Origin: a virus
DNA: 17,582 nucleotides
Virus genome (UHGV): UHGV-0144530
Reading direction: 5' to 3' (one strand)
Part shown: piece after piece, positions 5,593-13,276 of the stretch
Layout of the letters: each line of letters begins with the position of its first letter
Numbering within the stretch: position 1 is the first letter of the stretch
Position numbers and translations under genes: made by a program
Notes under the pieces: model-generated
Databases searched by the model: none
The model's input: the letters and a program-made list of their open reading frames with translations, nothing else
Told to the model about the DNA's origin: nothing

Positions 5593-5725
5593 TTTTGGGA
5601 ACTCCTGGCTGATTAAGTATGTCGATAAGGCGTTTCCATCCATCACGTAATTTACGTGTGATTCGTTCAAGTAAAGATTCGGAAGGGCAGCCAGCAACAG
5701 GCCACCCTGCAATGGCATATTGCAT
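5585..5725 (-). CDS. cIII: CIII, inhibitor of FtsH-mediated CII degradation
   Basis: MQYAIAGWPVAGCPSESLLERITRKLRDGWKRLIDILNQPGVPKNG matches lambda CIII almost residue for residue; RBS AAGGAG; ORF-track frame 5585..5827 trimmed to the ATG at 5725. Confidence 0.8.
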   Translation of the reverse strand: MQYAIAGWPVAGCPSESLLERITRKLRDGWKRLIDILNQPGVPKNG

Positions 5726-5782
5726 GGTGTGCTCCTTATTTATACATAACGAAAAACGCCTCGAGTGAAGCGTTATTGGTAT

Positions 5783-6400: not shown

Positions 6401-6763
6401 TTACTTTGTCAGGGGGATATCTCCTTCAGTTCTGACCATTCGCCTTAATACTTTCCTTAAGTCGATGTAAAGTTGAATGTCTCCATTTGCTGCGGCATCA
6501 GCCATTTTTTGCCTGACAAGCAGTAATGTTTCATACGGCTCAATAAGAATATCGTCATGAGTAATTAGGTGAAGCGTTGCCGCATCAACTATTCCTAGAG
6601 CTGCGCCAAGTATCAAAAATTCCCTGCTATTTTTGTCGCATGAGGAGATAAGCGTATTTAGCGCATACCTAATATTCTTTATAGCTGTTGTTAATGCTGC
6701 AATTTCTTCTATGGCGTCTTCTTCAATGAGCTTTTTAAGCTCATATTTTTCTTCCTGACCCAT
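6401..6763 (-). CDS. hypothetical protein (120 aa) immediately downstream of N
   Basis: ATG at 6763 with RBS GAGG; the N stop TAA lies inside GAGGTAATTATG; ORF-track frame 6401..6847 trimmed; no recognised motif. Confidence 0.5.
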   Translation of the reverse strand: MGQEEKYELKKLIEEDAIEEIAALTTAIKNIRYALNTLISSCDKNSREFLILGAALGIVDAATLHLITHDDILIEPYETLLLVRQKMADAAANGDIQLYIDLRKVLRRMVRTEGDIPLTK

Positions 6764-6765
6764 AA

Positions 6766-7035
6766 TTACCTCGCCGTCAGTTGTTTTGATTTCCGGTAGC
6801 CTGCCGCGTAAATAGCTACGTTTGGCAGGCAAATACTTCCACTGCATTCATCTGCCTTCTTGCAGCGAAGGCTTCCGAGTGATGCTGCTTTATCTGCTCT
6901 GACGCAACCAGAGAGCTTTAGCGCAATTTTTCGTGCCAATCGCTGTTCTTGCATTGCCTGTTCACGTTGAGCCTGTCTGCGTGCTCTGCGGCGATTTCTG
7001 GCGTTATCATCAGCCAGATAAGTAACGATTATCAT
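6766..7035 (-). CDS. N: N-like transcription antiterminator (89 aa)
   Basis: arginine-rich motif NARNRRRARRQAQREQ near the N-terminus; strong RBS GGAGG 5 nt upstream of the ATG at 7035; lies downstream of nutL; ORF-track 6766..7164 is an unsupported in-frame 5' extension. Confidence 0.6.
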   Translation of the reverse strand: MIIVTYLADDNARNRRRARRQAQREQAMQEQRLARKIALKLSGCVRADKAASLGSLRCKKADECSGSICLPNVAIYAAGYRKSKQLTAR

Positions 7036-7465
7036 GTTGACCTCCGATGATTGGCTTTGGTGATTAGGTGGACGGTACTGATCTCCGGCTTGGTTAGTGC
7101 TTCGCCTGGTCATTATCACGCCTAGTGACCCCCTGAGGATCGTCTCCTCGCCAGTGCAGGTCATATCGCATCAGTCTGCGCATTCACCCAATCCCAAAGC
7201 CAACTACTCTTTGACTCACACTCTCGCAGTGAGCGCGCTCATGCCATTGAGTCTCTGCCGCTTCATCGCCGCTGATAACCGGTGCGCGTCTGGCATTCGC
7301 GCTGCTTTACCGGAGCTACTTTTAATATATTGACCCTAACCCGATGCTAAGCAGGCTCGCTCAATGGCGACTCAGGGCAGCATCATTACTGCTGCATTGC
7401 CTTTCGGCTGCGGTCTAACCGCGTTAGTGCACCATTACGGCACCTCCTGTTTGGTTAAACTCAGT

Positions 7466-7507
7466 TCCCGCATTTCGGCGGGACAATCCCATCAATGTTA
7501 AAGAGCC
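7466..7507 (-). promoter_or_regulatory. nutL (boxA plus boxB)
   Basis: minus-strand boxA GGCTCTTTAACA (plus coordinates 7496-7507) followed 12 nt later by hairpin TCCCGC-CGAAAU-GCGGGA (7466-7483); the boxB is identical to that at nutR. Confidence 0.7.
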
Positions 7508-7552
7508 TGCCAATCTGTTCCGTTTGGCTTCCAGCGTCCTGCTGATGGCTTA

Positions 7553-7637
7553 AAGATAACTTAGGTTATAGGTGTGGTCAATAACCTAATTTATATTTTA
7601 TGGTAAATAAGTTATAAGTGATGGATAACAAAGGTAT
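7553..7637 (-). promoter_or_regulatory. OL operators and pL promoter
   Basis: 14 bp palindromes matching ATAAC-N4-GTTAT at 7556-7569 (perfect), 7581-7594 (1 mismatch) and a degenerate copy near 7624-7637; minus-strand -35 TTGACC (7576-7581), 17 bp spacer, -10 TATCTT (7553-7558). Confidence 0.55.
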
Positions 7638-7759
7638 TTTATTTTTGTAAATGTTGCTGATTGATTGGTGTTTGAGGGCTTACGTGCGGGGTGAAGGTGT
7701 TACCTTTGGCTTGATGCTTGTCTATGATGAGGATGGTTGATTGGGTGGTGAACGGCAGG

Positions 7760-7794
7760 AAAAGAAAACCCGGCGCTGAGGCCGGGGGTTTTTA
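7760..7794. terminator. bidirectional intrinsic terminator
   Basis: CCCGGC-gctgag-GCCGGG with an A-run on the left and a T-run on the right, so a U-tract follows the hairpin on either strand; ends the cI-orf98 transcript. Confidence 0.65.
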
Positions 7795-8088
7795 GTCTTT
7801 TCTTTTGCTTAGCATTTCGTCGATTTCTAAGTCAATACGATATTGATCTATTGCTTTTCTCTCGTTTGGGGTTGGTATTTTATACTGTTCAATTAGATCT
7901 GTTGTGTATTTTATTTCATCTAATGTGATTTTTATATCAGAGAGAATCTCTTTTATATCAATTAGATGCTCTTCTTCTTTTGCGCGATTAGAGCTATGTT
8001 CAATCATTTGAGATAGCTTTTTGCTAATGCTTAGCAAAACAAAAAGAATGATGACCAAAACAACAACAAAAACTATCAGAAATTCCAT
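7792..8088 (-). CDS. membrane-anchored coiled-coil protein co-transcribed with cI (98 aa)
   Basis: hydrophobic N-terminal helix EFLIVFVVVLVIILFVLLSI then a charged, heptad-like C-terminal half; strong RBS GGAGGG 4 nt upstream; about 40 nt downstream of the cI stop; strongly AT-rich relative to neighbours. Confidence 0.6.
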   Translation of the reverse strand: MEFLIVFVVVLVIILFVLLSISKKLSQMIEHSSNRAKEEEHLIDIKEILSDIKITLDEIKYTTDLIEQYKIPTPNERKAIDQYRIDLEIDEMLSKRKD

Positions 8089-8128
8089 TATCCCTCCGCA
8101 CTTCCGTAAGTCTTCTTCTGATTATCGG

Positions 8129-8836
8129 TTACCAACTATGAGACGACCAGAATACTCTGCCAATAATCCTTACGGTTTCATGAAATTCATCTCTATCCAT
8201 TACTTCATCCGGGTACTCTTCGCGATTTATTGATCTGATTATCACCGATGTAGGGGTGGCGATTAATGTTTTTACTCGTAACAAATCAGACTGGCAAATA
8301 GCGTAGGTTTTACCATCTCTGATTGTGGTATCTTGCGTGTTAACACCAACAACATCGCCATCGTGAAGCGTTGGTTCCATGCTTTGCCCTACAACCCTAA
8401 CTAGCTTGGCTGATCTTTCTGATACTCCCATCTTTTTCAGATAGTGCTTTCTGAAAACCAAAGAGAACTCCGATGATTCCTCTAGCTCGCAGCTACCGCT
8501 TCCAGCTGAAAGCGAAACGTTAAGAAGAGGCAACGCAACAAACTCGTCATCGTTTCTTTTAATGTCTTCCCATACCACAGCTTTTAAAGATGACTCACGG
8601 ACATTGGATGGTTCTTCATGTGCACCATCCCTCATTTCACCAATACCAGAACTAAGCCATTCAGGACGCACTTTTAAAGCATTGGCTAATTCAACCATCT
8701 TGCGAGATCCGTTTGTTTTACCGGACGACATCTTCTGTATGGCTGGCTGAGATATTCCAACCATGTCAGCAAGCTGTGATTGTGATACCCCTGCTGAGCT
8801 CATGGCTGCATTTAGTCTTTCTGCGAATGTTTTCAT
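8129..8836 (-). CDS. cI: CI-type prophage repressor (HTH plus S24 LexA-like peptidase domain)
   Basis: N-terminal HTH (VSQSQLADMVGISQPAIQKM), Ala-Gly cleavage site in SLSAGSG, catalytic Ser in GQSMEPT and Lys in LRVKTL; ATG at 8836 abuts the operators; ORF-track 8129..8866 begins at an upstream TTG. Confidence 0.85.
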   Translation of the reverse strand: MKTFAERLNAAMSSAGVSQSQLADMVGISQPAIQKMSSGKTNGSRKMVELANALKVRPEWLSSGIGEMRDGAHEEPSNVRESSLKAVVWEDIKRNDDEFVALPLLNVSLSAGSGSCELEESSEFSLVFRKHYLKKMGVSERSAKLVRVVGQSMEPTLHDGDVVGVNTQDTTIRDGKTYAICQSDLLRVKTLIATPTSVIIRSINREEYPDEVMDRDEFHETVRIIGRVFWSSHSW

Positions 8837-8848
8837 ACTCACAAATCT

Positions 8849-8914
8849 ATAACTACGGTTATCCAAAGTAAAATAACAAAGGTTATTGCTATTTTTTATA
8901 ACTTGAGTTATCTT
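8849..8914. promoter_or_regulatory. OR operators with divergent pRM and pR
   Basis: three perfect 14 bp palindromes ATAAC-N4-GTTAT at 8849-8862, 8873-8886 and 8898-8911, centres 24-25 bp apart; plus-strand -35 TTGCTA (8886-8891), 17 bp spacer, -10 TATCTT (8909-8914). Confidence 0.65.
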
Positions 8915-8947
8915 TGGTTATAAGTAATGACCACAAGAGGTATGCTC

Positions 8948-12582: not shown

Positions 12583-12687
12583 ATGACAATCTACATCACT
12601 GAGCTAATAGCAGGGTTATCGTTACTAATGGTTCTTACTGTATATATTATTAAGTATATTCTTTATGCGAATAAAAAAAACAATTGA
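12583..12687 (+). CDS. candidate single-TM micro-protein (34 aa)
   Basis: MTIYITELIAGLSLLMVLTVYIIKYILYANKKNN; the ATG directly follows the primase-helicase stop, with GGAG 8 nt upstream; AT-rich; its 3' end overlaps the HNH start across an A8 tract. Confidence 0.3.
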   Translation: MTIYITELIAGLSLLMVLTVYIIKYILYANKKNN

Positions 12688-13276
12688 TCACGATGAGCTT
12701 CTGTCAACATTATCATATGACTCAGAAACAGGAATATTTAAATGGCTAAAAACAAATTCAGTAGTAAGAGTAAAAGGTAGTATTGCTGGAGGTGTTAGTG
12801 GTGGTTATATATGCATTAGCATAAATAATGTTTTGTATTATGCGCATAGGCTTGCTTGGTTCTATGTATACAAAAAATGGCCTCCTAAGTTTATTGATCA
12901 TGTAAATGGGAACAGACTTGACAATAGGATTTCAAATCTAAGACTGGCAACAGAGGAGCAGAATGCAAGAAACATTGTAGGTAATAGGTTAAACACATCC
13001 GGTGCGATTGGAGTGTCTTGGGATAAGACAACTGGCAGGTGGAAGTCTTATGTTGGTTATAAAAATAAGACAATATCGTTAGGGTATTTCGATAGCAAAG
13101 AAGATGCAGCATTCATAGCAGCACTAGCAAGAAAGAAACTATATGGAACTTATGCGAGTAAAGCACTTAATTGCGAGCATGAGCTTTTATCTCAATTTAA
13201 TAATGATGAGGATAAACTTGCGGAATATCTTAAGGAAAAATCTAAAAGGACTCGAAAGCGTGTTAAAAAAAGATAA
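12665..13276 (+). CDS. HNH endonuclease with C-terminal AP2 DNA-binding domain (homing-endonuclease-like)
   Basis: HNH_3-type motif YAHRLAWFYVYKKWPPKFIDHVNGNRLDNRISNLRLATEEQNARN followed by an AP2-like segment SGAIGVSWDKTTGRWKSYVGYKNKTISLGYFDSKEDAAFIA; AT-rich codon usage; no obvious RBS. Confidence 0.75.
   Translation: MRIKKTIDHDELLSTLSYDSETGIFKWLKTNSVVRVKGSIAGGVSGGYICISINNVLYYAHRLAWFYVYKKWPPKFIDHVNGNRLDNRISNLRLATEEQNARNIVGNRLNTSGAIGVSWDKTTGRWKSYVGYKNKTISLGYFDSKEDAAFIAALARKKLYGTYASKALNCEHELLSQFNNDEDKLAEYLKEKSKRTRKRVKKR

Follow-up and report, generated by a model that had tools for sequence, protein, structure and literature searches.

ORF98, a 98-codon reading frame directly behind the cI-type repressor gene of a lambdoid Escherichia coli prophage, appears to belong to a small family of cargo genes of the cI-N hotspot that, judging from their position, are expressed in lysogens, a kind of gene that is already known. 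Mosaicism is well established for the cI-N interval, in which two abortive-infection systems, rexAB and bstA, are located and are believed to be expressed from the highly active promoter of the repressor (PMC8585504). From its position and architecture, we tentatively propose that ORF98 may protect the lysogen and its prophage from superinfecting phages, a reading that we hold as possible rather than probable.

The window (the whole stretch of DNA analysed, 17,582 nucleotides) covers the early genes of a lambdoid prophage of E. coli, and the Stx1a-converting phage Stx1a_10051 is 99.3% identical to it across 1.4 kb. The ORF98-bearing segment was found in 105 of 5,426 complete E. coli genomes (∼2%), in all of them on the chromosome and with ORF98 always annotated as a hypothetical protein; the copy in O26:H11 strain 11368 is WP_000394868.1. 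From left to right, the window carries Ral and a cIII thermoregulator RNA, N (positions 6766-7164, minus strand, left of OL), an OL/PL-like region, a terminator, ORF98, cI, OR, cro, cII, O and a primase-helicase gene. The repressor gene (8129-8836, minus strand) encodes HTH_3 and Peptidase_S24 domains and yields 235 aa when read from the ATG that RefSeq uses in strain 11368, its longest open frame starting at a TTG at 8866 (245 aa); the longest frame of cro starts at an ATG at 8927 (81 aa), and the RefSeq start in the same strain gives 74 aa. Three operators of the form ATAAC-N4-GTTAT lie between cI and cro and make up OR (8849-8862, 8873-8886 and 8898-8911), and two OL operators (7556-7569 and 7581-7594) are overlapped by a PL-like promoter, TTGACC-17-TATCTT (7553-7581, minus strand). 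This palindrome occurs six times in the window compared with 0.47 expected by chance, one copy lying outside the immunity region at 2742, and the 24-25 bp spacing of such sites marks OL and OR of this immunity type.

Further features were seen elsewhere in the window. The lambda cIII thermoregulator RNA element (5680-5738, minus strand) matches Rfam RF01804 with 88.5 bits (E=8e-21). The ORF directly downstream of N (6401-6847, minus strand) matches PHROG 7374, of unknown function, from residue 29 onward (E=8e-79); since the longest version of this frame runs into the end of N, translation probably starts at an internal codon. A second AT-rich island (12665-13276, plus strand, 31-38% GC) lies between the primase-helicase gene and ninB and encodes a 203-aa protein with HNH_3 and AP2 domains that looks like a homing endonuclease.

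ORF98 starts with an ATG and occupies positions 7792-8088 on the minus strand. The original prediction had placed it about 40 nt downstream of cI, with a strong ribosome-binding site and a bidirectional terminator, and each of these elements was found. The spacer (8089-8128, minus strand) measures exactly 40 nt, the stop codon of cI being at 8129, and a Shine-Dalgarno sequence read from the sequence, GGAGGG (8092-8097, minus strand), precedes the ATG by 4-5 nt; GGAG is present upstream of the Citrobacter orthologues as well. Downstream of the gene, the two-way intrinsic terminator CCCGGC-N6-GCCGGG (7769-7786, both strands) consists of a 6-bp all-GC stem with T-runs on both strands (folding energies of -12.4 and -18.3 kcal/mol for the minus and plus strands, respectively) and is retained alongside the ORF98 orthologue in Citrobacter loci. 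This terminator, which we take to correspond to lambda t_imm, closes the cI-ORF98 operon. No terminator-like hairpin was detected in the spacer between cI and ORF98, where the fold is weak (-5 kcal/mol, z-score +0.42).

In a blastn comparison of the window with a Citrobacter locus (L002) in which cI and the flanks are unrelated, the sole shared DNA is a block of 334 nt (7765-8098, minus strand) with 80.5% identity, extending from 10 nt before the ORF98 ATG to 27 nt past its stop codon and thus comprising the ribosome-binding site, ORF98 and the terminator. Since the shared DNA begins only 10 nt before the ATG, this cassette carries no promoter of its own and depends on transcription from cI. 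Together with the short gaps (1-40 nt in all lambdoid loci) and the lack of an intervening terminator, the layout strongly suggests that ORF98 is co-transcribed with cI in lysogens, in agreement with what had been predicted. Compared with a classical moron, the cassette shows the atypical base composition (30% GC versus 43-46% nearby) and the terminator of its own, but not the promoter. The only promoter-like site nearby is a weak sigma-70-like one, TTGGCA-17-CATAGT (8135-8163, minus strand), which recalls lambda pLIT and is located in the 3' end of the repressor gene, ∼47 nt upstream of ORF98. It scores 9 of 12, lies outside the conserved cassette, and is within chance, three sites of such kind being found where 4.1 are expected.

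The cassette sits in a variable slot that extends from the conserved OL/nutL block to the cI stop codon (7657-8128). In phage SH2026Stx1, whose cI is 93-94% identical, the slot contains a DUF3024 gene and another ORF and no ORF98, and in phage PA28 (cI ∼79% identical) a similar terminator and one small ORF, directed rightward, are all that it contains, with no leftward gene. Both phages share with the window the OL/nutL block (7489-7656) and everything rightward of 8127/8129, and ORF98 can thus be replaced by other cargo. In Citrobacter-type loci, a rightward ORF of 68-74 aa converges on the two-way terminator of the ORF98 orthologue (L002, 6324-6530; L004 and L006, 6324-6548), and in PA28 a weakly similar 69-aa ORF (L008, 2203-2412) is found with a near-identical terminator in a cI-OL slot that has no ORF98. 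We rejected a two-gene system consisting of ORF98 and this convergent ORF, as its homologue is absent from the window and is present without ORF98 in PA28. The corresponding stretch of the window (7657-7768) is a conserved G/T-rich sequence of 112 nt, with no homologue of the rightward ORF and no unusual structure; a search for a small RNA in it gave no Rfam match and a fold z-score of -0.97, which lend no support to one.

Linkage to a repressor gene was then compared across relatives. All those examined in a lambdoid context lie 1-40 nt behind a cI-type repressor gene (HTH and S24 peptidase) on the same strand: the gap is 40 nt in 32 E. coli loci (97-100% identity to ORF98), 15 nt in five Citrobacter-type loci (∼75% identity) and 1-20 nt in five distant viral contigs (35-48% identity). 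At least seven types of repressor are encoded next to the gene, many of them only 20-40% identical to one another. The original prediction had likened the location of ORF98 to the slot of lambda rexA-rexB, and the most direct confirmation comes from a Citrobacter freundii prophage, the locus that shares only the 334-nt block with the window, whose cI and Cro have 78% and 67% identity, respectively, to those of lambda and in which the ORF98 orthologue, 15 nt after cI, replaces rexA-rexB. Within E. coli, the OL-ORF98-cI-cro block is 95-100% identical across backbones that differ in N, cII and replication genes.

The AT-richness of the gene is evident (30.3% GC, compared with 43% for cI and 45.9% for the whole window), but its reading as a sign of recent acquisition did not hold. 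All members measured have 29-40% GC, versus 43-48% in their cI genes, and a low GC content is a lasting property of the family, imposed at least in part by a composition rich in Ile, Lys, Glu, Asp and Leu. Since the family has diverged to 35% identity while keeping its place behind cI, ORF98 is a long-standing resident of the slot.

Strict linkage to the repressor over many immunity types raises the alternative that ORF98 tunes the lifecycle of its own prophage, by acting on induction (spontaneous or SOS), on the choice between lysis and lysogeny or on how stable phage regulators are. Lambda cIII acts on the membrane-bound FtsH/HflKC, and ORF98 might work through the same complex; its predicted cytoplasmic amphipathic helices at the membrane surface, as well as its travelling in the OL-cI-cro block through many backbones, would fit such a role. 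However, ORF98 is missing from phages whose cI is the same (93%) or related (79%), indicating that it is dispensable for that repressor circuit, and partner repressors of only ∼20% identity argue against a specific partnership with cI. We consider this alternative unlikely.

At 26-31% identity, the three relatives furthest from ORF98 lie neither beside repressors nor in recognisable prophages. One lies among small hypothetical genes of Pelagicoccus (Verrucomicrobiota), another with a gene for a SHOCT-domain protein and an IS200 transposase, and another behind an NtrC-type response regulator (these relatives, all outside lambdoid prophages, are L045, 6001-6351; L046, 1229-1570; and L047, 1376-1756). 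Linkage to cI is thus not universal in the family, and the ancestral function need not concern phages. These chromosomal, non-prophage contexts, the one beside the response regulator in particular, are consistent with ORF98 being a lysogenic-conversion factor that acts on host physiology, for instance on a transporter, a sensor kinase or an envelope stress pathway, as might be expected of a small single-pass membrane protein with a conserved, predicted cytoplasmic domain. Against this, no match to known small membrane regulators was obtained, PspB being the one compared by profile (hhalign probability of 35% over 13 columns; no Pfam PspB match), and the cI-N slot is best known for exclusion genes. 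A role in host physiology is therefore doubtful in our view, and exclusion of superinfecting phages remains the reading that we favour.

As predicted, the protein begins with a transmembrane helix (residues 3-21, mean Kyte-Doolittle 3.67), which contains no polar or charged residue. Inner-membrane localisation is predicted from this strong helix and from a conserved charge asymmetry: 17 of 17 aligned family members lack Lys and Arg ahead of the helix and have one to four of them among the 15 residues that follow it. By the positive-inside rule, on which the topology is based, the protein would be oriented N-out/C-in, with an N-terminus of 0-8 residues in the periplasm and a C-terminal part of ∼75 residues in the cytoplasm. 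An AlphaFold2 model built from a nine-sequence alignment (mean pLDDT 81, pTM 0.29) contains helices at residues 2-38, 45-68 and 74-97, and in the model and the family alignment the last two are linked by an invariant YK(L/I)P turn. The heptad-like character ascribed to the C-terminal half proved to be partial: residues 42-66 show a clean a/d register (LLLT/IIII, 7/8), albeit one matched by 394 of 5000 shuffles, whereas no register was found in the last helix.

Common to the family as a whole are a hydrophobic helix at the N-terminus, a variable linker and, at the C-terminus, a conserved block of ∼45 residues with the motif I-K-Y-x-T-D-x-I-E-x-Y-K-(L/I)-P-x-x-x-E-R-x-x-I-D-x-x-x-x-D-x-E-I, and Y69, P72, D81 and E88 are invariant across the 17 aligned sequences. 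Compared with three Citrobacter-type orthologues (∼80% nucleotide and ∼75% amino-acid identity), ORF98 gave dN/dS values of 0.17-0.19, which separate into 0.38-0.41 for codons 1-40 (anchor and linker) and 0.08-0.10 for codons 41-98. Selection is thus strongest on the C-terminal hairpin of helices, which includes the invariant Y-K-(L/I)-P turn. As the helix in the membrane consists of hydrophobic residues only, without a polar face, and belongs to the less constrained, faster-evolving part of the protein, it would be an anchor rather than the lining of a pore, and function would reside in a membrane-tethered cytoplasmic hairpin.

The same observations bear on the possibility that ORF98 is a membrane-active toxin or addiction element whose oligomers depolarise the membrane, either as a RexB-like abortive-infection effector or as a stabiliser of the prophage. 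A small hydrophobic protein at the position of RexB invites such a reading, and the one heptad-type helix could drive oligomerisation. Yet the transmembrane helix offers no polar or charged residue and lies in the less constrained half, no conserved partner, sensor or antitoxin gene was found, and a cell could hardly tolerate a toxin made constitutively along with cI; a toxin is distinctly improbable. That ORF98 is a spurious or decaying frame in an AT-rich spacer open by chance, as its low GC, its annotation as hypothetical everywhere and its want of a domain match might suggest, is highly improbable and effectively refuted by the selection analysis (dN/dS 0.08-0.19), with the full-length frame and ribosome-binding site being retained down to 35% identity, the four invariant residues being kept in 17 sequences, and the exact protein being found on more than 700 contigs. 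The pattern of substitution shows that ORF98 is a real gene under purifying selection.

Profile and structure searches, which the original prediction had proposed as a check, returned no match to a characterised protein. The protein matches PHROG 18389 ("unknown function") over its full length (E=5.2e-62, residues 1-98 on profile positions 1-98), and so do 17 of 17 aligned family members; this PHROG has no functional annotation, so that membership says nothing on function. Accordingly, the view that ORF98 belongs to no known family stands as far as characterised families are concerned, but the family, while uncharacterised, had already been catalogued. It is also very small. A profile search found 14 representatives among 1.84 billion representative proteins, a word-indexed search of 5.8 billion clusters found 11-16 members, and one of 50,697 deposited phage genomes has a member; a scan of GTDB species-representative genomes found nothing. 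Pfam, NCBIfam and PADLOC gave marginal matches only (DUF5385, MscL and ZorB/MotB), due to the transmembrane helix or to composition, those to the PADLOC defence models being below threshold and due to the transmembrane helix. A profile search of PDB sequences retrieved designed coiled coils and MotB with non-significant E-values, and neither PDB nor BFVD yielded a match when searched by Foldseek with the AlphaFold2 model. A literature search for the accession and the PHROG 18389 identifier found no mention of either.

Two other assignments were considered and rejected. Similarity to a MotB/ZorB-type stator subunit is confined to the transmembrane region (E=0.009, 13.5 bits; E=0.38-0.5 for MotB in PDB), and the transmembrane helix of ORF98 has no Asp or Glu, whereas such stators have a conserved acidic residue there and a periplasmic domain. 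An i-spanin (Rz-like) or a holin, expected in a lysis cassette and with N-in/C-out topology and a periplasmic coiled coil, does not agree with the location of ORF98 in the immunity region or with its charge distribution, which predicts an N-out/C-in orientation.

Returning to protection against superinfection, we envisage ORF98 as the promoterless second gene of an immunity operon, cI-ORF98-terminator, that would be transcribed with cI in lysogens from the promoters for maintenance and establishment of repression. Its product would be a single-pass inner-membrane protein with ∼2 residues in the periplasm and ∼75 in the cytoplasm, tethered at the membrane surface. On the cytoplasmic face of this membrane, the tethered hairpin would bind its target as the phage genome enters or at another early step of infection, the target being either a component of the genome-entry or early machinery of the incoming phage or a host membrane protein used by that machinery. 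Position and architecture make an exclusion or abortive-infection role plausible; it counts against such a role that the cargo of the cI-N slot is not always defence. Going one step further, ORF98 could conceivably found a new single-gene family of prophage defence, in which a membrane-tethered cytoplasmic hairpin, co-expressed with the repressor and swapped into the rex slot as a promoterless cassette, stops rival phages at the inner membrane face by a mechanism unrelated to RexAB, BstA and known superinfection exclusion (Sie) proteins; we regard this as a speculative possibility that falls short of being probable. Nothing in the analysis points to an unprecedented mechanism, and many candidates of this type exist.

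The cI-N interval is where lambdoid prophages keep genes that stay on during lysogeny, and it is the source of rexAB, which has been studied for more than 60 years, and of bstA. The ORF98 family is a minimal occupant of this slot, and its clearly bounded 334-nt cassette and conserved domain of ∼45 residues make it easy to clone and test. Its presence in ∼2% of complete E. coli genomes extends to O26:H11 Shiga-toxin strains. If ORF98 excludes phages, it would be a new and very small defence protein, relevant to phage therapy and to how Stx phages spread in pathogenic E. coli; should it tune induction instead, it could affect the release of Shiga toxin.

Of the known exclusion systems, lambda rexA-rexB is the closest in location. 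Like ORF98, it lies directly 3' of cI, between OR and OL, and ends at the terminator of the immunity operon, and one of its products is an inner-membrane protein, as is predicted for ORF98. The differences are in content. ORF98 is one gene of 98 aa and the only gene between cI and the terminator, whereas rex consists of two genes (279 and 144 aa), and the gap after cI is 1-40 nt in the ORF98 family versus 112 nt in lambda rex. RexB is a multi-pass membrane protein and ORF98 has one transmembrane helix, so that the two-component arrangement of rex, a cytoplasmic sensor and a membrane effector, is not seen here. Homology to RexA or RexB was not detected by blastp at E≤1e-3, and no Rex model in PADLOC or the PHROGs was matched.

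Small Sie membrane proteins are made while the cell carries the phage. P22 SieA, HK97 gp15, T4 Imm and Sp, lactococcal Sie2009 and DicB are small, phage- or prophage-encoded and inner-membrane-associated proteins that block genome entry (PMC10883804, PMC6832061). No sequence or fold similarity between ORF98 and the small Sie proteins or DicB was detected, their genomic positions differ, and the functional domain of ORF98 is predicted to be cytoplasmic, unlike that of the small Sie proteins. BstA, for its part, is ∼300 aa long, binds DNA through its N-terminal domain and has an aba element for self-immunity, and the synteny seen for the BstA of Salmonella prophage BTP1 is maintained in different prophages (PMC8585504); ORF98, a 98-aa membrane-anchored helical protein by prediction, has no detected domain in common with it. 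If it does protect against superinfecting phages, ORF98 would be a functional substitute for rexA-rexB that acts differently.
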